A program made the translations under genes and the position numbers. 64,000 bases of DNA from a virus (lineage: Duplodnaviria; Heunggongvirae; Uroviricota; Caudoviricetes), in IMG/VR virus record IMGVR_UViG_2526164631_000023. One strand, written 5' to 3'. This document shows, piece after piece, positions 4,196-36,648 of the stretch. Under the pieces are notes generated by a model that searched no databases, was not told where the DNA came from, and was given only the letters and a program-made list of their open reading frames with translations. The first letter of the stretch is position 1; each line of letters starts with the position of its first letter.

Positions 4196-5893
4196 GTGAA
4201 TAAAAACATTCAGCCAGCTCGTGATCGCGAGCGCGAGATTATGAATCGGGCGGCAAGCGTCATGGCTATGACCGTCGATCCGACCACCGATGCAGCAGGC
4301 AACATGATTGCTGACCAGGCAGTAATGATGGAAAACCTGGATAAAGCAATCCAGAAAGTGCCTATGTTTGAAGGCGTAAATCCAGAGGTCGCTCGTCAGA
4401 TCACTGGTGGGTGGGCTATGTCTCTGCATGAGTATAAACGTCAACATGGTCATTACCCGGCAAGTGACATCCTGGCGAACGCACACATGGCTCTTGAGCG
4501 CCTGATGACTGAATGTGCCAGTGATACCCATGAAGGCACGGGTAAGGCAATGTTTGAGTCTGTCGCGCAATCAATGCGTAGCTCTGACGGCGTAATGAAA
4601 GTTGCTCAATATGCTGCTCTAATTCTGCCTGCCTCTCTGGGCGCTGCTACCAGTGATGCCTGTACTTTTGTTCCTTGTGATCGTGACGAGTCAAATATTT
4701 ATGAACTGGTCAACGTAGCAGGCACAAAATTCGGCACCTTCAACCAAGGTGACGAACTGAATATGCAGTCAGCTGGTGTTTATTCTCAAATGAAGCGCCT
4801 GTATGCCCTTTCCACTAAAGGGGATGGCAGCACCAAAACCTTCCAGTTCAACATCCAAAATTTTGAGGGACAATCCTGCCCGCTTCGCGCTGGTTATAAC
4901 AAACTGCTGATCAACCGCAAACCGTCCAAAGTTGACGACGGCGATGGCAACCTTTATTTCAATGCTAAAGACAGCAAAGGTAATGCTTTCTCAGCGACTG
5001 CCAAAGTTGCCTATGACACTGGTGTCATTGACATTACATTTACCCAGGCTCCGCCAGAAGGTACTGAAATTGCTGTTCAGGTCGAAATTAACATCGAGCG
5101 CAATCCAAGCCTGATTCCGGTGATCAACCAGGCTATGCGTAAGTACGAAGTTCGTCCGTCCCAGTACGTACTTGCTTCCGAACACACGGTAATGTCCGCA
5201 TCCGATTTAAGCCGTGAGCACGGCCTTGAATTAGCGGCACTTCAGTTCTCCGCGATGCGCAACTGGATCTCCCATGAAACCGACATCATGCGTCTGCGCA
5301 CCCTGGTATTCCATACCGTTTATGGTCGTGAATTTGATGTGGCTCTGCCGGAAGCTCAAAACTATGAGTCCTGGGTCGGTCTCCTGCGTCACGTAGTAAA
5401 CGCTCTGTCTCAAGAAATGGCAAATCGTACCCTGACAACGGGTATTCGTGGCGGCTTTGCTGGTAGTGACGCCGCGAACTTCCTGCGCTCTCTGCCTCCA
5501 CAGCACTTCCAGATCGCACCAGGTTACGTTCAGTCGCCGTATGTACAGTACATCGGCACCCTGTTTGGCACGATTCGTATTTACGAAGTGCCGCAACCTG
5601 TCTGTGAGCAATTCCAGGCACAGGGATATGACTTCGGGCTGGATGACATCTTCTTCTATGGGCGTGGCGAAGGCATCGGTAAAGCCGGTCTGATTGCTGG
5701 TGATGCAGTCCCAGCAATCCCTTACGTTCACGAAACCAATCCGTCTCTCGTTAACCGTACCACTCTCTGGGGCAGTGCCATCAACGAAGTACATCCTCGC
5801 AACGGTGAAAACTACTTCACCCGCCTGCGTCTGACTCGTGCCAAAGAAGGTGCTATCGACATGCTGACAGGCAAGGTTAACGAAAAAAAGTGA
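4196..5893 (+). CDS. large virion structural protein, possibly major head protein (P1 gp23-like size)
   Basis: 565 aa; position upstream of an Ig-like protein and tail sheath; assignment by size and context only. Confidence 0.35.
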   Translation: MNKNIQPARDREREIMNRAASVMAMTVDPTTDAAGNMIADQAVMMENLDKAIQKVPMFEGVNPEVARQITGGWAMSLHEYKRQHGHYPASDILANAHMALERLMTECASDTHEGTGKAMFESVAQSMRSSDGVMKVAQYAALILPASLGAATSDACTFVPCDRDESNIYELVNVAGTKFGTFNQGDELNMQSAGVYSQMKRLYALSTKGDGSTKTFQFNIQNFEGQSCPLRAGYNKLLINRKPSKVDDGDGNLYFNAKDSKGNAFSATAKVAYDTGVIDITFTQAPPEGTEIAVQVEINIERNPSLIPVINQAMRKYEVRPSQYVLASEHTVMSASDLSREHGLELAALQFSAMRNWISHETDIMRLRTLVFHTVYGREFDVALPEAQNYESWVGLLRHVVNALSQEMANRTLTTGIRGGFAGSDAANFLRSLPPQHFQIAPGYVQSPYVQYIGTLFGTIRIYEVPQPVCEQFQAQGYDFGLDDIFFYGRGEGIGKAGLIAGDAVPAIPYVHETNPSLVNRTTLWGSAINEVHPRNGENYFTRLRLTRAKEGAIDMLTGKVNEKK

Positions 5894-6384: not shown

Positions 6385-8043
6385 ATGAATAAGATTAGTT
6401 TTTCGGTAGGGCAGGCAGCTGGCGTTGCTGTAATGTCAGTAAATGCTGACGCTACCCTCACCAATACCAGCGGTGGCGCATCCGTCTTTGCTGGGCTTGT
6501 AATATCGCGTCGTGGCGCACCGGGTAAGGTACTGAAAGTTGACGATACGACTTATCAAAGCGTATTAGGTTCACCGATTCACCCTCGCCAGGGCGCGGCA
6601 TTTGAACCATATCGCCACGTGGAGCGTGCAGTAAAAGGCGGCTCTGGATATGTCGTTCGAGTTTGCGCTAAAGACATGAAGGTGCCGGGTATTTCTGTTT
6701 CCGTTGTGGGCAAAGCAAAAGCGGCAAAGGCGAGCAAAGAACTTTCCGTTGAACCTACTGAAACCACAGTAAATCCAGGTGACACATTAAGCGTTGGTGT
6801 TGCTTCAACTGCAACGACTCAATCAGTGACCTTCACACCCAAAGAGACGCCCCAGATTAAAGGTGGAGAGAAGGCATTATTCTTCATCAAAGATGGTGAT
6901 GCATCTCAAAATCGCACGTTATCACTAACTCGCGATGATGAAGAAAGCGAACTCTTTACGCTGACGCTGAAAGAAAAACAAACCGATGGGTCCATTGAGG
7001 TGCTGGAAAGCCACCAAGTGTCTTTCAATCCAGAAGGCACCAACGACATGGGCCAACCAGCATGGATTCCGACACTGCTTGAAAGCCAGTCCTCTCGCAT
7101 TGGTGCCGTACTGGCAGATAATGCAGAAGCATCCGCTGCTCAACTCATTTTTGAGGATGTAGCTTTTGAAGGTGGTACTGATGGAAATCTGTCCGAAATT
7201 AACGCTGCAGACTATCTGGAAGCATTAAAGGTTCTCGAAGCTTCAGAGGTTAATTACACCGCATTGCTGTCATTGGGTTGTTATGACGCATCCGCCTTAG
7301 CCGCAATCAAAAAGCTGGCTGAAGATGTTCGCGTAGACATGTTCTATGACCTGAAGGGCAACCAGACACCTGAAAACGCTATTTCAGAAGCGAAAAGCCA
7401 TAGTTTTGGCGGCTCACATCAACCAAGCCGTTACTACTTCCCGCTCTCCTGCCGAGATACCTTCACTGGGATGAATGTCGTCTATGGCATTAGTTGCGAC
7501 GCATTCGTAGCAAAAGCAAAAGGGGTAGCGCTGGTACCGGATGTTGGTGGTTGGCATTACGCACCGGCAGGTATATCACGCGCGATTATTGATCGACAGA
7601 ACATTGCCCGAATTCCAAATATCGGTGCAGTTGATCGTGAAGCGTTCGTTCTTGCGCGCATTAATCCGGTTTCAGTTGCTGCTGATGGGTCCGTTTACAT
7701 TGACGACTCTTTAACAACTTACAGCAAAAACAACTATCTGCGATTCCAGCATGTGTCTTCCTTGATGAACGCCATCGCCAGAGATTTCTATGAAGTAGCT
7801 CAGGCGATTAAGCACGAACCGGATGGCATTACCAAAGAAACGCTAATGAAAGCAATGACTGAATTGCTTGACCGTTACGTTGCAGCCGGTGCGCTGGTTA
7901 CTCCACGTGACAAGTCCCAGGGTGAAGATCCATACGTTGTTCAGGTTGTCCAAAAGGACATCGATCTGTGGGAAGTGTCCTGGTCTGTTTGTCCGACCGG
8001 TACAGCTCGCCGAATCGTCGGTAAGCCAATTCTGATGCGCTGA
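6385..8043 (+). CDS. contractile tail sheath protein with inserted Ig-like segment
   Basis: 552 aa; C-terminal region (GWHYAPAG...AFVLARINPVSVAADGSVYIDDS) resembles the P2 FI/T4 gp18 sheath family. Confidence 0.55.
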   Translation: MNKISFSVGQAAGVAVMSVNADATLTNTSGGASVFAGLVISRRGAPGKVLKVDDTTYQSVLGSPIHPRQGAAFEPYRHVERAVKGGSGYVVRVCAKDMKVPGISVSVVGKAKAAKASKELSVEPTETTVNPGDTLSVGVASTATTQSVTFTPKETPQIKGGEKALFFIKDGDASQNRTLSLTRDDEESELFTLTLKEKQTDGSIEVLESHQVSFNPEGTNDMGQPAWIPTLLESQSSRIGAVLADNAEASAAQLIFEDVAFEGGTDGNLSEINAADYLEALKVLEASEVNYTALLSLGCYDASALAAIKKLAEDVRVDMFYDLKGNQTPENAISEAKSHSFGGSHQPSRYYFPLSCRDTFTGMNVVYGISCDAFVAKAKGVALVPDVGGWHYAPAGISRAIIDRQNIARIPNIGAVDREAFVLARINPVSVAADGSVYIDDSLTTYSKNNYLRFQHVSSLMNAIARDFYEVAQAIKHEPDGITKETLMKAMTELLDRYVAAGALVTPRDKSQGEDPYVVQVVQKDIDLWEVSWSVCPTGTARRIVGKPILMR

Positions 8044-8080
8044 TTTATAACCCCCGCTAAATGATGCGGGGGAGAGAGGT

Positions 8081-8821
8081 TTGAATATGAAAAATTATAC
8101 TGCTGATCCTTTTATGCGTGCGATTTTCGGTTCTGGCTGCTTTGAAAGCGGTGATAAATCCACGCAGGACAATAATGATAACGCCATGCTGGAAAGCGCA
8201 GGACAGAAAGGAAAGGACACTCAACCAAAGCCCAAAGACGACATTGAAACCGCGATGATGGAAGCGGTTGAATCCCGTGCACAAGGTGATATGCGCAGCC
8301 TGGCAGCTTCCATGCTTGCTGGTTGGGTTGAAGATGGTGATCCGGAGGCTGACTCATTTGATGCATTAGCAATCACTATGGCTGGCCTGGCTGATATCGA
8401 TGAAGACACCGATTTCACCGATGAGCAAATCGATGCTTATAATGATGCACTCGCAGCTCTTGCTGATGCAGCTGTTGCGCTTGGCGCTGATCAGGATGAT
8501 GTAACCGAAATGATCGACGATGAAGATGACTCAGCTGCCGAACGTGTTTATGACGCTCTTTCCGAAAGCGACACCGACATGATGGAAACAGCTATTGCCA
8601 TTTACACCGTTGCTGGTGGTGATAGCGCAATGCTGGAAGCGGTACGTAAAAAAGTGGTTCGTGATGGCAAGGTAACCATCATCCGTAAACGCCCGCGTCC
8701 TCGCCGCATGACGTCATTGCAAAAACAGGCGCTGAAAAAAGCACGCCGCAAAGCACATACATCCGTAGCGAATATCAACCGCAAAAAATCAATGCGCATT
8801 CGCAAAAAACGCGGTTTGTAA
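8081..8821 (+). CDS. highly acidic protein with Arg/Lys-rich C-terminal tail
   Basis: 246 aa; D/E-rich body (DIDEDTDFTDEQIDAYNDALAALADAA...) then RKRPRPRRMTSLQKQALKKARRK. Confidence 0.4.
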   Translation: MNMKNYTADPFMRAIFGSGCFESGDKSTQDNNDNAMLESAGQKGKDTQPKPKDDIETAMMEAVESRAQGDMRSLAASMLAGWVEDGDPEADSFDALAITMAGLADIDEDTDFTDEQIDAYNDALAALADAAVALGADQDDVTEMIDDEDDSAAERVYDALSESDTDMMETAIAIYTVAGGDSAMLEAVRKKVVRDGKVTIIRKRPRPRRMTSLQKQALKKARRKAHTSVANINRKKSMRIRKKRGL

Positions 8822-8870: not shown

Positions 8871-9461
8871 TTGATTTGCGGCGCGATAATGCCTGACGGA
8901 ATAAGTCCGTTAATGAAGGTTTATATCCTCTCTTCAGAGGATATGGTCGTCGGTTATATCGGTGAAGGATCTACCGCAGAACTGTCATCAATGTGGCAAT
9001 CACCATTTGAAAACCAGTCAGTAGGAGGTTTGCTTGGTGGTATTAGCGCTGCGGCTGGCTCTCTTGCAGATACGCTTCAGACCGCAACCGGCGTAACAAC
9101 AAAAACCCTCTTCAACTCAATGCTTGTTTGGGAAGGTCAGCAACCGCCTGAATTTAATCTGGTAATTGATTTCATGGCGACAACGAACGCGCAACTTGAA
9201 GTGAACGCAGCCATTACAGCATTGCTGAAGATGGAATCGCCGGAACTGAACAATGTAGCGCCATTCGGTCGTCGCCCGGAGACAGTAACGTTAAACATAG
9301 GTAGGAACATAGCCCTTACCGACGTTGTTATCAAAAGCGTGAGTTACCAACTGGACGCCCCACGCACACCGGAAGGCTATTTCACTCATAACACGGTAAC
9401 CCTGCAATGCAGCGGAAACACCTCGATTAACCGTAGCAACATATCATCTGTTTTTGTGTAG
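8871..9461 (+). CDS. tail-associated structural protein (start possibly at the internal ATG about 8913)
   Basis: ORF track; position between sheath and tube-like gene. Confidence 0.3.
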   Translation: MICGAIMPDGISPLMKVYILSSEDMVVGYIGEGSTAELSSMWQSPFENQSVGGLLGGISAAAGSLADTLQTATGVTTKTLFNSMLVWEGQQPPEFNLVIDFMATTNAQLEVNAAITALLKMESPELNNVAPFGRRPETVTLNIGRNIALTDVVIKSVSYQLDAPRTPEGYFTHNTVTLQCSGNTSINRSNISSVFV

Positions 9462-9469
9462 GAGTATTT

Positions 9470-9961
9470 ATGTCCGGTTTTGCAAATACAAAAGCCGATA
9501 TCGCTTTTCTGAAATCCCGGTTGAACAAAAACCTGGCAGCGGGCGAAAAACTTATTGGTTCAGAATTCTGGATGACTATTAAAGGTTACGAAAAACTATC
9601 TGTACTTGTTCGTACCACTCAGTTGCCGGAAATGACTCGCGAAGACGTGGAAGACTATGGTCCTGGCGGCATGAAGATCAACCAGCACGGGCCATTGCGT
9701 AACTCAGGTGAATTCCAGGTTACCTGCTCTGAAACCATCGAAGGGGATGTTCTGGCCGCCGTAAAACAAATGGTATATGGCAAAGAATATCTGGAAATTA
9801 CCTTACAGGCAGCGGCTGAATCCAATAGCGGTAACCATAAAGGTCTGATCCGCACATATTATCACTGCAAAGTGTATTCCGACGCAGTGGACTTCTCCAC
9901 CGAAGACGTAACAGCAGTCGTTAAGCCTTCCCTGCGTATTGTTTACAACTGGGTAGAGTGA
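9470..9961 (+). CDS. putative tail tube protein
   Basis: 163 aa; size and position after sheath; weak resemblance to myovirus tube proteins. Confidence 0.35.
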   Translation: MSGFANTKADIAFLKSRLNKNLAAGEKLIGSEFWMTIKGYEKLSVLVRTTQLPEMTREDVEDYGPGGMKINQHGPLRNSGEFQVTCSETIEGDVLAAVKQMVYGKEYLEITLQAAAESNSGNHKGLIRTYYHCKVYSDAVDFSTEDVTAVVKPSLRIVYNWVE

Positions 9962-10013: not shown

Positions 10014-10565
10014 ATGACACCAACCGAATTATTAGAAAGCGTTAAAGCACGATTTAATCCACTGCTTGTGCGTGAAGAAGAAACGCTGAAAGCCTTCCTG
10101 ATCAAAGCTCTGACCACGTATCAGGACAGGGCAGGGGTAGTGAAAACGTTAAAACTTGAAAAAGCTGGTGGTACTGCAATCCCATTACCAGAAGATTATC
10201 TCTCTCTGGTTCATGTTACCGACAACAATGGCCTGTTGGTCTATTCGGATGAATTATCCGGATTTATTGAATTAGAGCTAACAGGTTCAGAGCGCTGGCC
10301 TTTTCGAATGCTGTATCTGGTTAATCTACACGACAGAAAGCTGGATGAATGGCAAGTGCCTCCTGCAATCATTGGAATGCTGGAGGAATATCTAGAGGCG
10401 CTTATCAATGTAAGAAATGTCGCCCGGCAGCGTAGAGCGTCCATCGACGGGAAATTTGACTACTCCGATCTGCCCGATGAAGCCACGCTATATGCCCGCG
10501 TGCAGGAGATTGAGGAAAAAATGTCCTCAAACCGGGCCATTATTCCGGGGGCTACCATTTTTTAA
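10014..10565 (+). CDS. hypothetical protein
   Basis: ORF track, 183 aa. Confidence 0.35.
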   Translation: MTPTELLESVKARFNPLLVREEETLKAFLIKALTTYQDRAGVVKTLKLEKAGGTAIPLPEDYLSLVHVTDNNGLLVYSDELSGFIELELTGSERWPFRMLYLVNLHDRKLDEWQVPPAIIGMLEEYLEALINVRNVARQRRASIDGKFDYSDLPDEATLYARVQEIEEKMSSNRAIIPGATIF

Positions 10566-11288: not shown

Positions 11289-11300
11289 AATGCTTTAATT

Positions 11301-11522
11301 ATGTGTGCTGTAGGGAAAGGTTTACGTTAAATGTGTGCTGCCGGGAAACCCCATTGCTCAAGATGTGTTGTAGAGGGAATGGTAATGGCAACATGTGTGC
11401 TGGAGGGGAATTTCGCATGTAAAGAGCGTCATTTATCCCTCCAGCACACATCTGAAATAAGCAATCCTCTGAAATTCCCTCCACCACACATCCAGACATG
11501 AAACTATCCCTTCAGCACACAT
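11301..11522. repeat. incA-like RepA iteron array (about 7 copies, 4 direct and 3 inverted)
   Basis: 19-bp units ATGTGTGCTG(N)GGGAAA at about 11301, 11331, 11362, 11392 and CAGCACACAT-type inverted copies at about 11436, 11475, 11507; matches the P1 iteron consensus. Confidence 0.7.
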
Positions 11523-12386
11523 TTAATCTGTTGGTTTAAGTTTCGGATTCCGAGAGTGAACGATAATGAAGTTTTCACGACCTTGCTTTTCAATGGTGCA
11601 ATCGAGATAACCTATTGTTTTTAACTGGTCTATAGCTTTTTTTATCGTTCTGTTTTGCTCACTTACCGATGACATCAAGGCTAATCTTTCACGTATTCTG
11701 GCAAATGAAATAGGTATTGGACGTGCCGGGAGGCTTTCTATAAAGGTATATATGGCCTGGGCTGCTTCTTTTTTAGGTAAAGCGCGAAGTGCGTGTTGCT
11801 GTAGAAGCACCCGATAGTCTAGCTGGAAGATTTCCCATAACTTGGAATCAGCCTCCAGTTCAACGACATCTGTTTCAAAGTCAAAATATCCCGTTTTAAG
11901 CAGGCCAGTATTGTAGCTTCCACGAGCACTTTTCCCTCTTTTGAATGAGATGCCTTTGTTGCGTAACCGACCTAAAGAATCGTGGATCGTGTTTCTTAAT
12001 TTCCCATCAAGTCGCTTAGATGGAAATCCGCACGCCTTTGCAAATTCTTGAAAAGAAAGGCGAATTGTATTCGATGATAAGCCATACTTGCTAAATGAGT
12101 AGATTACCCCAATCCAGACTTTGAAATCAGTATCCATGTCCAAGCGAGGGCCAGTGATCTTGATGTTGTCGTAGCCTTCTGCTTGAGCTATTTCCAATTT
12201 GGAAAAAACAGATGATGCATCTATCTCGTTGTTTTCACCCTGTTTTTTAGTTGGTTTAGGGACGAAAACACCAAGCCGCATAAGTGCGACAGGTTGAACA
12301 GTATTGTTCGAATTAACTGTTAATTCTTTAGCCTTGCTTTCAATGTCAGCATAAAGAATATCAGAGATAAATGACTTATCCATCAA
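11523..12386 (-). CDS. repA: RepA replication initiator (P1 R-replicon type)
   Basis: 287 aa; MMDKSFISDILYADIESKAKELTVNSNNTVQPVALMRLGVFVPKP... recalled as near-identical to P1 RepA; flanked by iterons on both sides. Confidence 0.85.
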   Translation of the reverse strand: MMDKSFISDILYADIESKAKELTVNSNNTVQPVALMRLGVFVPKPTKKQGENNEIDASSVFSKLEIAQAEGYDNIKITGPRLDMDTDFKVWIGVIYSFSKYGLSSNTIRLSFQEFAKACGFPSKRLDGKLRNTIHDSLGRLRNKGISFKRGKSARGSYNTGLLKTGYFDFETDVVELEADSKLWEIFQLDYRVLLQQHALRALPKKEAAQAIYTFIESLPARPIPISFARIRERLALMSSVSEQNRTIKKAIDQLKTIGYLDCTIEKQGRENFIIVHSRNPKLKPTD

Positions 12387-12447
12387 TAAGTTACCGTCAT
12401 GTTGTGAATAAAGTTTACGACAGTGGATATCCGGCTTTTTTTCCCAT

Positions 12448-12652
12448 CAGCACACATCCTACATCCCGCCAGCACACATGTAAAACCCTCCAGCACACAT
12501 ATTTTTCCCGTCAGCACACATCGTTCTCCCTCCAGCACACATCTGAATAGTGGTTAAAGCCTTATGTGGCGCGGCCTGAAGAGCTACGGGATCTATTTGG
12601 TACTATATGGATCTAATCAGGATCTATATATTGGATCTATCCTGTGGATAAA
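12448..12652. promoter_or_regulatory. oriR/incC-like origin: 5 iterons, GATC cluster and DnaA box
   Basis: CAGCACACAT at about 12448, 12469, 12491, 12513, 12534; five GATC in 12588-12650; CCTGTGGATAAAA (DnaA box) at about 12641. Confidence 0.75.
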
Positions 12653-12737: not shown

Positions 12738-13559
12738 TTGAACATTCCAAAATTCCCATTGCCTTCCCGTCCTGAGACAGAAATTCAGTTCCACGCCCCT
12801 ACCGTGAAGGATGCGCTGAAATATTCTGACCTGAACCCGGCAGAAGATGAGGCAACTACTACAGAGTACCTTAACTCTATGCAGGATGGTGAAATTAACG
12901 ACAGTGCTTACTGGACAGTCCAAGATCGCAGAACTGCCCTTTGGTGGATATTTGTTAATTCGCGCCCCGATGCAGTAATGACCTACTCCTATGAGTGCAG
13001 TCACTGCGGTAATACGCATCATGCAGATATTAACCTGAGCGACCTGGCCCAAACAGTAGAAATACTCACTGTACCTCCTTACGTGAAAACCAACGTACCA
13101 GTAAATGGAGTACCAACTGACTGGATACTTAAACCATTAACCGGGAAAGGTGTGGAACTCCTTGAACGAATGCGAGCGTCACTTCCTGATATGAAAAGTC
13201 CCGAATACAGTGCTGGCGTAGCACGGATGCGAATTGCTGAACTCGCTTTATGCACGGCGCTTGAAGACGATCCGGAGGACTTCACGCAGGCCGCTAACCG
13301 ACGCTTTGACATCATTGAAAGCATGGCGCTTGAAACCGAATTTACTCCGCTTGTGGCTCGCATACAGCTTATGCAAAAAGACCTACGCCACGGCCTGAAA
13401 ATGTCTATTGAGAGAGGCTCAAGCCGACTGATCCTGCCTCCGCAACATTGCAAAAACGCTAAGGAGGGTGCAGATGTGACAACCACACTGTACGTCCCCT
13501 TTCTCAATAGAGAGTTTATCCCATCAATTAGATCTGAATGGATGGCTAACCATTATTAA
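12738..13559 (+). CDS. hypothetical protein with CxxC...H motif
   Basis: 273 aa; YECSHCGNTHH. Confidence 0.35.
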   Translation: MNIPKFPLPSRPETEIQFHAPTVKDALKYSDLNPAEDEATTTEYLNSMQDGEINDSAYWTVQDRRTALWWIFVNSRPDAVMTYSYECSHCGNTHHADINLSDLAQTVEILTVPPYVKTNVPVNGVPTDWILKPLTGKGVELLERMRASLPDMKSPEYSAGVARMRIAELALCTALEDDPEDFTQAANRRFDIIESMALETEFTPLVARIQLMQKDLRHGLKMSIERGSSRLILPPQHCKNAKEGADVTTTLYVPFLNREFIPSIRSEWMANHY

Positions 13560-29496: not shown

Positions 29497-30106
29497 GAAT
29501 AATTATGTTCTTCTTAATTATGATGAGTTAAACGAAAAGGGGCTGTCAAAACTCGTCAAAGAAATCAGCAAAGGTGGTTACAAGATAGCGAGGGTGATCC
29601 CTGCAAGTAATGGCAGGAAGAAAGATGGGATCATGACGCGCACGTTTACCCTTATTGGTATTGATGAACAGACAATGGAAGTTCAGGTTAACGATACCGG
29701 TGATATATCTGGGATCAAACTGAATGGTAAAACAGTACCGTTCAAGCCAGTAAAAACAATGTCGGCTTTGGGGCAATCTCTTGCGGCTTTATTTAATCGC
29801 GGAGCAACTTCTTTCCAGAAGTCATTAGCTCGAAAACTTGCTCGTGCAGCAAAAAATATTGATGACGGAAATAAGAAGCGGCAGGGAGTTAAATCTAACG
29901 CTCAGAAATTAGCTGAAGCGAAAGAATCACGTGATGCACTCCGTGAAGATATCGCTAATGCTAACGACAAACTGTCTAAACTCCAGAGCAAGTCAGACAA
30001 AGTAATGCAAGATACGGGTAATGTTAAAGCTGCCTTGTCTCAGGAAGTAGCTAAGACACGTGCTCTTAAAGAAGAAATCGCGCGCCTGGAGGATGAGCAT
30101 GATTAA
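29471..30106 (+). CDS. coiled-coil hypothetical protein
   Basis: ORF track; likely start MSNKNNYVLL at about 29486. Confidence 0.35.
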   Translation: MKETGMSNKNNYVLLNYDELNEKGLSKLVKEISKGGYKIARVIPASNGRKKDGIMTRTFTLIGIDEQTMEVQVNDTGDISGIKLNGKTVPFKPVKTMSALGQSLAALFNRGATSFQKSLARKLARAAKNIDDGNKKRQGVKSNAQKLAEAKESRDALREDIANANDKLSKLQSKSDKVMQDTGNVKAALSQEVAKTRALKEEIARLEDEHD

Positions 30107-32035
30107 CAATCCTTTACGAATTAATATTCAGTCTACTTTTGCTGATACGATCCCCGGCTATATGCCAAGTCGCTGGTCTTCAGAAGAATTAAGCGAAGAT
30201 GACCTGATTTTTGAGGCGGCGACCTTAGAAGATATTGAGCTTGCCTATATGGGCAATGAAATTCTGGTTGTGTCTGACGAAGCTATGTTTGAGTCCATAA
30301 CTACAACCAGAATTCGGTTAGCTCAAACAATGCGAGCTTTCGTCCGTGCGCTGAATCGTGGCCTGAATGGTACGAATATTATGGCAGGGACTGATGAAGC
30401 CGGGACCGATGAAAATGGACGTAATTGTATTGGTGGTGCGATTATCGGTCGTGTACGTCGGGTAGCTAATATCCCTGTTTTGACCGCGCAGATACCGCTT
30501 ACTGACGGGCAGAGTACAAGCATAATTTTCCACTCTCCAACAGCTGACGGGGCAAAAATAAAGAGTAACGACGAGCTTGTTGCATTTCAGTTTTTACTTA
30601 ATAAGCGTAACGTAACTCACGTTGTCGCCCCGATTGGTGGGAGAGATGTTTCTTTAAGCCAGGTATGCCAGGCGCTATCTAATTTGATTGAGCGTAACAG
30701 CGAAAAATTTAAGAAGGCAAAAGAGCGCCAGGACAAAATGAAGGCAGATATTGAGAGTTATCTCAATGAAGCAGATAAACTGGCAGAAGAACGGTCAATA
30801 ATGATTGATCAGGTGGACGTTGCGCAACGTGGGCTGACTGAAAAGCGTGCTGCTCTTACGGAGATGCAAAAAAACTTGATGCCCAGAAAGCCATCAACGA
30901 GGAATTACAAGCAAAACGCGATAAATTGTTGTCTGCTAAAGGTGAAAAAACGAAAGAACGAGCGTTTAGCGACCAGCTGCGACATGTAAAACATAATCTT
31001 GCCATTGACGGAAAAACAGTGCTGGATAATGGCGCTGAAGTTAATTATGTCACGTCCGGCAGTGACAATTTCGTTACGATAGTAGCACCTGAAGGTAAAT
31101 TCAGTATTGATGCCAGTGCTGTCAAAGGAGGCAGTTTGGCAGATGCTGCAACCAAATTACTTAAAGCCTACCGAGAGCATAACGCAGATAAATATAAAGT
31201 TGATGTGTTACCAGGCCAGCAGGAAGACCCCGAACCACCACAGACAGACCCCGAGACGAACCCAGTATCACAACCAGAGAGCCAGGATGTAGGTAAATAC
31301 CACTATGCACTTCAATCTCGCCCGGCTGGTGTTGGTGCTGTGCCGGATGGAAATAAAGCCGTGCTTGATCGTCCTGACCAGGCTGATCAGTATTACGAAT
31401 ATGCTCGTCACGGTATCATTACGTATGACCGTAAACTGACAGATGAAGAAGTCAGCCAGTACGAGTTGCTCTATCTTCCTGATGAAGATGAGCTGAAAGA
31501 TTTTGCAGGCCAATTGGTTGTGTCCAGCATGTCGAAACATATTGATGGCTATGTAGACCTGTTTGGCAGTGACCTGAAAACATTCAAGGCGCAAGTGAAA
31601 ATTCTTTTCCGCAAAGCGTTTCCAAACGTGGCGTATCCACTTGGTGATGGGGAGAACCTTTTCATTATGGACGTATATAACGCCCTTCAAAATCATTCAA
31701 ACGAAGTAACGCCAGAGCCTGAATTAGCACCTGTAGTTGAGCCAGAATCACACCCACAAACAGCACCAGAGCAACAGCCAACGCCGGAAGACGCTGAAGA
31801 AGCGGCAACTGAAGCTGATCAGGAAGCAGATAAAGCACTGGAGTACCTAAAATCCGTCCCGGTGCAGTTTACATCTCGCGATCTGACGGTAATCAGTGCC
31901 GAACTTGACCATGTGCAGGAAGCTGCAAACGCTCTTATCAGTGCTGGTCGATACGACGAGAACGAATCAACGGTTGGCGCAGCAGTTGACTACCTGATCA
32001 ACATTCTGGCTGAAATTCAGCAGGGAGGTGCTTAA
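30093..32035 (+). CDS. virion/anti-restriction-operon protein split by a -1 frame change at A_AAA_AAC (30869-30875); zero-frame product about 298 aa, shifted product about 647 aa
   Basis: ORFs 30060..30989 and 30926..32035 overlap; coherent coiled-coil sequence continues across the A7 run only in the -1 frame (…TEMQKK LDAQKAINEELQAKRDKLL…). Confidence 0.45.
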
Positions 32036-35649: not shown

Positions 35650-36648
35650 ATGCAATCACTGAATACTGTTACGGATCGCTTCTCCCTGGTAGAGAAAATC
35701 CGCAAACACACACCGCAGAACAACCGAAATTACGTCATTCAGTCGGTACGAGACACATTCAACTCGCCAGAAACAAAAGAGCGTATCGCGCTGGGTGAGA
35801 TGTATGGTTATTACGGTCATGGTCGCCGGGCGATGCACTATAACAAAACGAAAAGCCTGAACTTGCCGGAAGTCTCTGTTGTGATGGTAGATGGGAAGCC
35901 TGTTGTATTGGAGAACGTGCCGTCAAACAGGACTATCGACATTTCGATTGACGACAACGGCATTGTTACTCATACGCAGGAAATACTGAATACAGACACC
36001 GGGCATATTGTTCAGGGCATGATTAATTCTGGTGCTGGTGGTTGGTCGTGGGCTACATCTGGTCCAGATTCATCGGTATCCCTGGTAAAGTCTTTCCACG
36101 GCTTTGATTACGTAACTGTGCCTAACTATATCAGCCTCGACAAGAAAAGCCTGATGCTTGAATCAGCAGAAGAGCGCGATGCGGCTATTCATGCAGCACT
36201 TATCGAACAAGGTTTTACCGATAACGCTGCTACGGATCTGGTTCACCACTTTTCAGCAATGAAAAATCAGCAAGCCATGCTCGAATCTGCACATCGTGAA
36301 GCCCTGGAATCAGAATTGATGCTCCTTGAAGTGGAAAACATACAGCTTCGAGATAAGCTGCGCGCTCAAACAGCGATGATGGAAAGCCAGGGGGAAAATG
36401 CAAAGCAATGCCGCCGGATTTTGCGTGAAGCTATCCAGGAAATGCCTGTTTTTATCAGCGCAGAACAGCGCCGGGCGCTCTGCCGTATGCAGTCTGAAGA
36501 TGATGCCCGCATAGTGGCTGCGATGCTTGAATCTCTTGGGGCAAATGCTACTTATGGCTTACCGGTATCAGGCAAGAAAGAACCAGAGTTATCACCGAAG
36601 GAGAACAAAAACACTACCCCGTTACTCTTCGTTTCCAGAAGGGGGTAA
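35650..36648 (+). CDS. putative prohead protease/scaffold
   Basis: 332 aa; context only. Confidence 0.25.
   Translation: MQSLNTVTDRFSLVEKIRKHTPQNNRNYVIQSVRDTFNSPETKERIALGEMYGYYGHGRRAMHYNKTKSLNLPEVSVVMVDGKPVVLENVPSNRTIDISIDDNGIVTHTQEILNTDTGHIVQGMINSGAGGWSWATSGPDSSVSLVKSFHGFDYVTVPNYISLDKKSLMLESAEERDAAIHAALIEQGFTDNAATDLVHHFSAMKNQQAMLESAHREALESELMLLEVENIQLRDKLRAQTAMMESQGENAKQCRRILREAIQEMPVFISAEQRRALCRMQSEDDARIVAAMLESLGANATYGLPVSGKKEPELSPKENKNTTPLLFVSRRG

Follow-up and report, generated by a model that had tools for sequence, protein, structure and literature searches.

The protein of 244 amino acids (aa) encoded directly downstream of the tail sheath gene in IMG/VR virus record IMGVR_UViG_2526164631_000023 (Caudoviricetes; the whole stretch of 64,000 nucleotides analysed here is called the window) is, by its sequence, the orthologue of the product of gene 21 of phage P1. 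It is probably a prohead core protein, that is an internal, scaffold-type component of the immature head, which resembles gp68 of phage T4 and would be cut by the prohead protease, Pro. The broader claim that the protein is a substrate of this protease, and hence located inside the head, is put forward with good confidence, and the tail function under which gene 21 is annotated is probably wrong. The assignment to the head draws on the presence in the protein's linkers of the motif at which the capsid protein is cut, on the concerted switching of this motif with those of the major capsid protein (MCP) and Pro, on a C-terminal module like that of T4 gp68, and on the likeness of Pro to the T4 prohead protease. 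The T4 protease is also called gp21, and the phage is therefore named throughout (P1 gp21 or T4 gp21).

The window and the P1-related phage-plasmid D6 (Escherichia phage D6) are 97% identical, and the 244-aa protein matches D6_47 at 100% identity and P1 gp21 at ~41%, the latter along 87% of its length. The PHROG 1053 profile matches residues 1-244 at profile positions 1-230 of 230 (E 3.4e-85), and D6 orf47 is annotated as "similar to P1 gene 21" and "putative baseplate protein". The open reading frame (ORF) that was flagged initially runs from a TTG codon at 8081 to the stop codon at 8821, the TTG lying in frame two codons upstream of an ATG at 8087. The ATG is the likelier start and the TTG an unlikely alternative, since a purine-rich Shine-Dalgarno sequence (GGGGGAGAGAGG) is found 5-13 nucleotides (nt) upstream of the ATG and the annotation of phage D6 uses it. 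The original prediction had described an acidic, Asp/Glu-rich body with a basic, Arg/Lys-rich tail, unusual for a gene lying between sheath and tube genes, and this description stands. Residues 1-190 hold 46 acidic and 13 basic residues (net -33), residues 199-244 hold none and 20 (net +20), the tail sequence quoted at the time (RKRPRPRRMTSLQKQALKKARRKAH) is present, and the isoelectric point of the product is 4.7. When the same residues were shuffled 100,000 times, no 46-aa segment reached +20 (maximum +15), so that the charge segregation is not due to chance; the charge range of the protein is also the most extreme among window ORFs of at least 100 aa. The sheath gene lies on the 5′ side, and genes resembling pmgG and bplB of P1 lie on the 3′ side.

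Maturation of the P1 capsid protein, gp23, involves an Edman-verified cut in the sequence KAMLE120↓SVAAEM (E120↓S121; the arrow marks the cut) (PMC9024508). The MCP of the window reads KAMFE↓SVAQ at the aligned position, and the 244-aa protein holds two strict copies and one relaxed copy of the same motif, at predicted sites designated 1a, 1b and 2 (Table 1). Glu36 and Glu184 are invariant in an alignment of 27 relatives, within segments that are otherwise variable, and shuffling gives P = 2.4e-4 for the occurrence of at least two strict copies in this protein. Cutting at the predicted sites would be expected to release fragments 1-36, 37-59, 60-184 and 185-244. For P1 gp21, cuts are predicted after E31, E88 and E212. 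When the P1 genome is read in six frames, the pattern [ML][LFM]E[SA] occurs nine times in ORFs of 100 aa or more, always in head-associated proteins: four copies are in Pro and one each in gp23 (the verified cut), DarA, DdrB, PmgC and P1 gp21. In P1 DarA the site reads LLE69↓A70, and density in cryo-electron microscopy (cryo-EM) is present only from residue 70 (PMC12810830). Ten strict matches were found in six-frame ORFs of the window where 3.5 were expected, namely in Pro (three copies), the MCP, a DarA-like protein, the gene 21 orthologue (two copies), a PmgC-like protein, the sheath protein and one spurious ORF. The matches in the sheath protein (TLLES, ~7075) and in one minus-strand ORF are probably due to chance, the former because the P1 sheath protein has no copy. 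A second motif occurs in the MCP (PMFE↓G, ~4361), and the head-tail adaptor PmgC (10014-10565) has an N-terminal ELLES at ~10029, with ALLES at residues 24-28 of P1 PmgC.

These sites are kept, and changed, across a broad family. A profile search of 1.84 billion representative sequences returned 494 clusters at 50% identity (E ≤ 1e-3) with the same layout in all, and throughout the P1 supergroup, whatever the host, the P1 gp21 gene belongs to the conserved core. In 158 diverse relatives site 2 takes the form [MIVL][LFM][ED]↓[AS] with a constant spacing of ~62 aa to the C-terminus. The cut is preceded by Glu in 105, by Asp in 47 and by another residue in six, and followed by Ala, Ser or Gly in 151 of the 158. 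The acidic residues of the N-terminal site and of site 2 tend to be the same (Glu-Glu 62 and Asp-Asp 19, against Glu-Asp 1 and Asp-Glu 6). For comparison with the capsid protein, 160 IMG/VR loci were fetched, and 90 unique pairs of an MCP and a P1 gp21-like protein (86 from these loci, together with P1, the window, Rb1 and ABMM1) were scored at two positions, the MCP residue that takes the place of E120 in the alignment to P1 gp23 and the one that precedes the site 2 cut. Together they read Asp-Asp in 53 loci, Glu-Glu in 34 and Ala-Ala in one, with no discordant pair and two unresolved ones. In the phage of the Ala type, LMLA↓S/A is found twice in the MCP and twice in the P1 gp21-like protein. 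The protease follows the same pattern: Pro homologues of the Asp-type phages Rb1 and ABMM1 contain motifs of the Asp type only and none of the Glu type, and the Pro proteins of P1 and D6 contain four or five Glu-type motifs.

The residue before the cut also varies by clade (loci L021, IMGVR_UViG_3300009414_000001; P0140; L089-L168; L007 and L008), with Glu in enterobacterial P1 and D6 types, Asp in Xanthomonas and Acinetobacter phages and most environmental relatives, and Ala in a single lineage. The pattern looks like a natural series of switches in protease specificity with co-evolving substrates.

T4 gp21 cleaves after L/I-x-E (PMC9026906), and Pro of the window models as a protease with the T4 gp21-like fold, the top Foldseek match of its AlphaFold2 model being T4 gp21 (5JBL, probability 1.00), followed by herpesvirus proteases. 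All four motif copies of Pro lie in its C-terminal half, where they are conserved within a predicted long helix (residues 191-263), which suggests that this half is a self-removed, scaffold-like targeting extension. The "tail fiber protein" label carried by the Pro family in PHROGs and RefSeq is wrong. The portal of the window phage gives a weak match to the T4-portal family of Pfam. The 559-aa prohead protease encoded by Listeria phage LIS04 is a fusion with a long coiled-coil extension.

An AlphaFold2 model of the 244-aa protein, computed from the family alignment, predicts an acidic domain of six helices (folded core ~50-177, predicted local distance difference test (pLDDT) scores mostly 85-95) and a basic module formed by a beta-hairpin (188-199) and a long helix (210-241), the latter module being the most conserved part of the family. 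Residues 1-47, which contain site 1a, and the linker 177-184, directly before the site 2 cut, have pLDDT scores below 50, and site 1b is placed at the start of the first helix (pLDDT ~70-75). A Foldseek search of the PDB with this model found no structural neighbour (best E 1.6) and no DNA mimic among the matches, and in BFVD the sole neighbour was a homologue from Bacillus phage SP-15. Neither a Pfam scan of the protein nor a phmmer search against PDB sequences gave a match.

T4 gp68 is a non-essential protein of the prohead core, present in ~240 copies; T4 gp21 breaks it down into small peptides and most of it disappears from T4 heads (PMC9958956), and it has been linked to head-size determination (PMC9958956, PMC9026906). 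It has 141 aa, an acidic N-terminal part and a basic tail ending in ...KRRKALGLS, and two motifs are conserved in it, LIPE↓A and, immediately ahead of a V-x-x-R-G-x-I-T hairpin, L-N-E↓F; its family corresponds to PHROG 1049 and, by source annotation, to Pfam PF26830. When the 158-member P1 gp21 family was compared with the gp68 alignment by hhalign, residues 188-244 aligned with residues 71-140 at a probability of 91% (E 1e-6, score 45.2), where 40 column-shuffled controls scored 15.0 ± 3.3 (maximum 25.7) and the reversed alignment 16.4. Over runs, the probability ranged from 87 to 92% and E from 5e-7 to 4e-6, ~9 standard deviations above the shuffled controls, and the diverse alignment A3 gave 92.5%. 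The C-terminal modules of the two families are accordingly proposed to be homologous, and the architecture of the 244-aa protein to be gp68-like. The original prediction had mentioned scaffold-like factors and internal proteins alongside a DNA-mimic function in anti-restriction. The suggestions of a scaffold-like factor and of an internal protein pointed in the right direction, and apparent homology to a known scaffold of the same composition, in the C-terminal module of T4 gp68, is what was found. The anti-restriction function found no support, as the structural search of the PDB returned nothing resembling a mimic and the gene is a conserved core gene, not an accessory one. With neither structural nor distributional support, DNA mimicry survives here only as part of an alternative of low probability.

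The order MCP, sheath, gene 21 family, tube-type gene is kept in the window, D6, P1, Rb1 and ABMM1, and is broken in phages of the Listeria phage LIS04/Bacillus phage SP-15 type, where the homologue stands three genes after the MCP gene and five before the sheath gene. The LIS04 protein (gene 64, L003:5419-6444), which sits in a block of protease, MCP and neck genes, matches PHROG 1053 with E 3e-22, and the possibility that this match is a low-complexity artefact was rejected in favour of true homology. This position in a head block, the absence of P1 gp21 from virions and the lack of any similar solved structure were counted in favour of a head protein. The layout of the LIS04/SP-15 homologues is different, with the basic module in the centre and acidic domains on both sides, and another distant homologue (P0193) has two basic modules in tandem. 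P0193 and P0253, the most divergent relatives, come from contigs that are too short to show the surroundings of the gene.

The absence from virions is twofold: P1 gp21 does not appear in the near-complete list of P1 virion proteins compiled from cryo-EM, and the virion proteome, determined with liquid chromatography coupled to tandem mass spectrometry, lists ORFs 54, 55, 57 and 58 and not ORF 56, which is gene 21. For processed fragments the second of these is weak evidence, as a computation of tryptic peptides showed. All tryptic peptides of 7-35 aa from P1 gp21 (L006:7592-8407, minus strand) span a predicted cut or lie in a propeptide, with the exception of AQTGAAK. Trypsin-based virion proteomics is blind to mature fragments of this family and does not tell loss from retention, and it was therefore set aside as uninformative on whether the fragments leave the head. 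A search of a literature library found no paper proposing a prohead core assignment for the gene 21 product and no published data on cleavage of P1 gp21 or its presence in proheads.

A number of observations weigh against a gp68-like core protein, and they begin with the strength of the two main comparisons. In a tree of the mature MCP region the co-variation of Glu, Asp and Ala comes down to only ~2 independent switches, so the 88 concordant loci are not independent observations and the counts were not taken at face value; what they record is concerted change, since each switch involved a joint change at seven or more sites in three proteins. The similarity to T4 gp68 depends on the alignment used, as the narrow alignment A1 gave a probability of only 12-14%. 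It spans only 56-72 columns, which are rich in basic residues, and a sequence-to-profile hidden Markov model search against PHROG 1049, 14114 and 3503 returned no match up to E 10. Since hhalign covers the C-terminal columns only, A1 gives a low value and the sequence-to-profile search is negative, the protein is described as gp68-like and not as a member of the gp68 family. With regard to P1 itself, two recent structural and proteomic studies, one of them PMC9024508, know of no separate scaffolding protein and hold that the scaffold function comes from the N-terminal 120 residues of the MCP. P1 gene 21 is annotated as "baseplate or tail tube" and is essential by CRISPR interference (CRISPRi). 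The tail annotation presumably rests on amber mutants that make heads and no tails. The sheath gene is followed by a gene 21 family member and then by tube-type genes in 136 of 136 IMG/VR loci, and of the arguments left for a role in the tail this constant place behind the sheath gene is the strongest. The genetic results could both be explained by polarity, because gene 21 lies upstream of pmgG and bplB, two essential P1 tail genes, in the late operon LP23. Polar effects on these two, from a nonsense mutation or from CRISPRi, would yield heads and no tails irrespective of the role of gene 21, and the authors of the CRISPRi study caution that, of the genes on one transcript, only the last required one can be called essential.

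The competing explanation that fares best, with a small chance of being right, keeps the protein inside the head and makes it a precursor of cargo: one or both of the fragments released by Pro would be retained in the head along with the DNA and be delivered to the host. The +24 peptide would be protamine-like and condense DNA or protect its ends, and the -32 domain would act as a DNA-mimic decoy against restriction or other defences that bind DNA, which carries the idea of the original prediction over to the head. It shares with a gp68-like core protein all of the evidence for location in the prohead and for processing, the acidic part is a compact folded domain as in DNA mimics, and published proteomics is compatible with retention for the reason given above. 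There is precedent for such delivery, as P1-type phages inject head-internal anti-restriction Dar proteins (PMC12810830) and T4 injects IPI (PMC9958956). The search of the PDB, however, revealed no likeness to solved DNA mimics or to other structures, conservation throughout the P1 supergroup and across hosts is unlike that of accessory anti-defence genes, and the proposed homologue gp68 is degraded and mostly leaves T4 heads. On the inner surface of the P1 capsid, icosahedrally averaged maps show DarA-Hdf and nothing else, but cargo without order would not be visible in such maps.

It is unlikely, in turn, that the protein is a factor for building the baseplate or tail tube, perhaps a non-structural chaperone that attaches through its basic tail to the negatively charged lumen of the tube or to the tape measure and is absent from the finished tail. 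The annotation of P1 gene 21, its essentiality by CRISPRi and the constant order of sheath gene, gene 21, pmgG and bplB in the 136 loci all fit such a factor; absence from the virion would suit a chaperone, and the lumen of the P1 tube is electronegative. Apart from the polarity that can account for the genetic results, this explanation leaves aside the capsid-maturation motif in the linkers and its switching with MCP and Pro, as well as the apparent homology to gp68 and the position of the LIS04 gene in a head module. The protein gave no Pfam or PHROG match to a tail chaperone, and the place of a chaperone, just before the tape measure gene, is already held by PmgB. A tail assembly chaperone of the lambda gpG/GT type in particular was rejected for want of a family match and for the wrong position.

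A combination in which both fragments are retained is distinctly unlikely. Here the +24 peptide would sit on the packaged DNA and the -32 domain would be co-injected as a decoy, the acidic domain masking the basic peptide until cleavage; if true, the whole P1 supergroup would possess a conserved, head-delivered system for counter-defence or DNA condensation. That the motifs and the charge pattern are incidental to some other role, such as regulation or nucleic-acid binding in the infected cell, is very unlikely: a motif of four residues is short and some of the window matches are probably due to chance, but the motif positions are conserved over the 494 clusters, are located in linkers and change together with those of the MCP and Pro, and the gene belongs to a late structural operon.

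If the protein is a gp68-like core protein, it would be made late, alongside the capsid and sheath proteins, and built into the interior of the procapsid. The oppositely charged modules may hold the core together, with the basic module binding to acidic domains or to an acidic capsid interior. Pro would then cut after E36, E59 and E184 at [M/L][L/F/M]E↓[S/A], as in the MCP, DarA and Pro itself, freeing the 13-kDa helical domain (net -32) from the 7-kDa hairpin-helix module (net +24). Cutting of the linker may dissolve the charge network and so allow DNA entry. The protein may, like T4 gp68, serve to adjust the assembly or size of heads and not be strictly required.

P1 is both a classical model among phages and a workhorse in transduction and protein delivery. 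Should gene 21 encode a gp68-like core protein, P1 would gain the separate scaffold component that it was thought to lack, and its head pathway would be T4-like in one more respect. A tail, tube or baseplate label would then be misfiled in hundreds of phage-plasmid records, and there would be a new candidate player in the control of P1 head size (big and small heads, DarA/Hdf effects). The switching among Glu, Asp and Ala in MCP, Pro and the P1 gp21 family amounts to a natural experiment on joint change in the specificity of a protease and its substrates.

Table 1. Features of the gene 21 orthologue and of related genes and motifs in the window (↓, predicted cut)
Feature	Coordinates	Strand	Basis or remark
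Coding sequence, P1 gene 21/D6 orf47 orthologue, 244 aa + stop	8087..8821	+	PHROG 1053, D6_47 identity
Variable, disordered N-terminal segment, residues 1-36	8087..8194	+	AlphaFold2 pLDDT
Predicted site 1a, AMLE36↓S37	8183..8197 (motif)	+	E36 invariant; equals capsid maturation motif
Predicted site 1b, AMME59↓A60	8252..8266	+	N-terminal site common to distant relatives
Acidic helical domain (predicted), residues 60-184, 13.1 kDa, net -32	8264..8638	+	AlphaFold2 model
Predicted site 2, AMLE184↓A185	8627..8641	+	Disordered linker before basic module
Basic C-terminal module (predicted), residues 185-244, 7.1 kDa, net +24	8639..8818	+	AlphaFold2 model, conservation
MCP, P1 gp23 orthologue	4196..5893	+	Alignment to P1 gp23
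Predicted MCP maturation site, AMFE121↓S122	4547..4561	+	Aligns with P1 gp23 E120↓S121
Sheath gene	6385..8043		Between Ig-domain protein gene and gene 21 orthologue
pmgG-like gene	8871/8889..9461		Directly after gene 21 orthologue
bplB-like gene, true tube	9470..9961		After pmgG-like gene
AMFE↓S in DarA-like internal head protein	30282..30296	+	Reference protease substrate
Pro, prohead protease	35650..36648	+	AlphaFold2 model, Foldseek
Pro motif copies: LMLES; AMLES; AMMES; AMLES	36151..36165; 36274..36288; 36373..36387; 36520..36534	+	All in C-terminal half

The genes around the gene 21 orthologue encode, in order, MCP, an Ig-domain protein, sheath, the orthologue, and PmgG-like, BplB-like, PmgC-like and Tub-like proteins. 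Cryo-EM of P1 has assigned BplB as the tube, PmgG as a tube-linking protein, Tub as the tube initiator and PmgC as the head-tail adaptor, and in P1 gene 21 belongs to the single late operon LP23 (23-22-21-pmgG-bplB). The orthologue lies ~27 kb from prt and pro in the window, outside the cluster of portal, protease, scaffold and MCP genes. Within the 43 nt that separate the stop codon of the sheath gene from the orthologue there is a stable GC hairpin (8051..8072, plus strand) with a stem of 7 bp (CCCCCGC-N8-GCGGGGG; dG -17.9 kcal/mol, z -3.6), the 3′ arm of which abuts the Shine-Dalgarno sequence. A role as terminator of the sheath gene was rejected, there being no U-run and no call from a terminator scan, and the hairpin may control expression by setting the ratio of sheath to downstream gene products.

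Further along the window, the darA-like gene (30060-32035) is split into overlapping ORFs (30060..30989 and 30926..32035) by a single-base insertion or deletion relative to D6 darA (99.4% identity, 1 gap), and is either a frameshifted pseudogene or the result of a sequencing error. A replication gene of the RepA type (11523..12386, minus strand) lies inside the tail block between tub and pmgB, as it does in D6, and both of its flanks (11300-12560) hold iteron-looking repeats that read ...SLQHT... in translation. The PmgB-like gene (12738-13559), just 5′ of the tape measure gene, gives a sub-threshold match to T4_baseplate (PF12322; E 4.5e-5, 23.7 bits against a cut-off of 24.5), which may serve as a lead to its function.

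Among known systems, P1 gp21 is the closest, with the same place in the operon (23-22-21-pmgG-bplB), the same architecture and the same motifs. Nothing structural differs between P1 gp21 and the window protein, and the difference is one of interpretation only, in that the sequence evidence gives no support to the function on record, "baseplate or tail tube". With strongly acidic DNA mimics of the Ocr/ArdA type the protein shares only an acidic, folded character. It has neither structural nor sequence similarity to them, and it is set apart from them by its gene's place in a late structural operon, by its conserved basic module and by its protease sites. The internal proteins IPI-III of T4 and the Dar proteins of P1 are located inside the head, as is proposed for the window protein, and are cut at the same kind of motif near the N-terminus (PMC12810830, PMC9958956); these are retained, injected and accessory, whereas the window gene is a conserved core gene.

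Scaffolding proteins such as T4 gp22 and gp67 and those of the P22 type are acidic, helical, internal to the procapsid and removed at maturation, much as is proposed for the window protein. P22-type scaffolds dock via a basic C-terminal element. T4 gp22 has many [LI]xE↓[SA] sites (for example IFE↓S and LFE↓S) and differs in having no basic tail. Direct similarity of the window protein to T4 gp22, gp67 or gp21 was rejected (BLAST E 0.07 or worse).

It is to T4 gp68 that the likeness extends furthest. In both proteins a short N-terminal piece ends in L-x-E↓A, an acidic helical middle part follows, a conserved L-x-E comes just ahead of a hairpin reading V-x-x-R-G-x-[IV]-T, and the helix rich in Arg and Lys ends in ...R-K-x-x-G-L, so that a protease motif separates an acidic N-terminal part from a basic C-terminal one. 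T4 gp68, with 141 aa, has an acidic part of ~45 residues, whereas the 244-aa window protein has a folded, multi-helix acidic domain of 125 aa. The gene order differs as well, the T4 genes being arranged 20-67-68-21-22-23, whereas in the window the gene comes after that for the sheath, well away from those for the portal and protease. The two phages appear to have in common a portal and an MCP of the T4 kind, together with a T4 gp21-type protease whose cuts follow an acidic residue.

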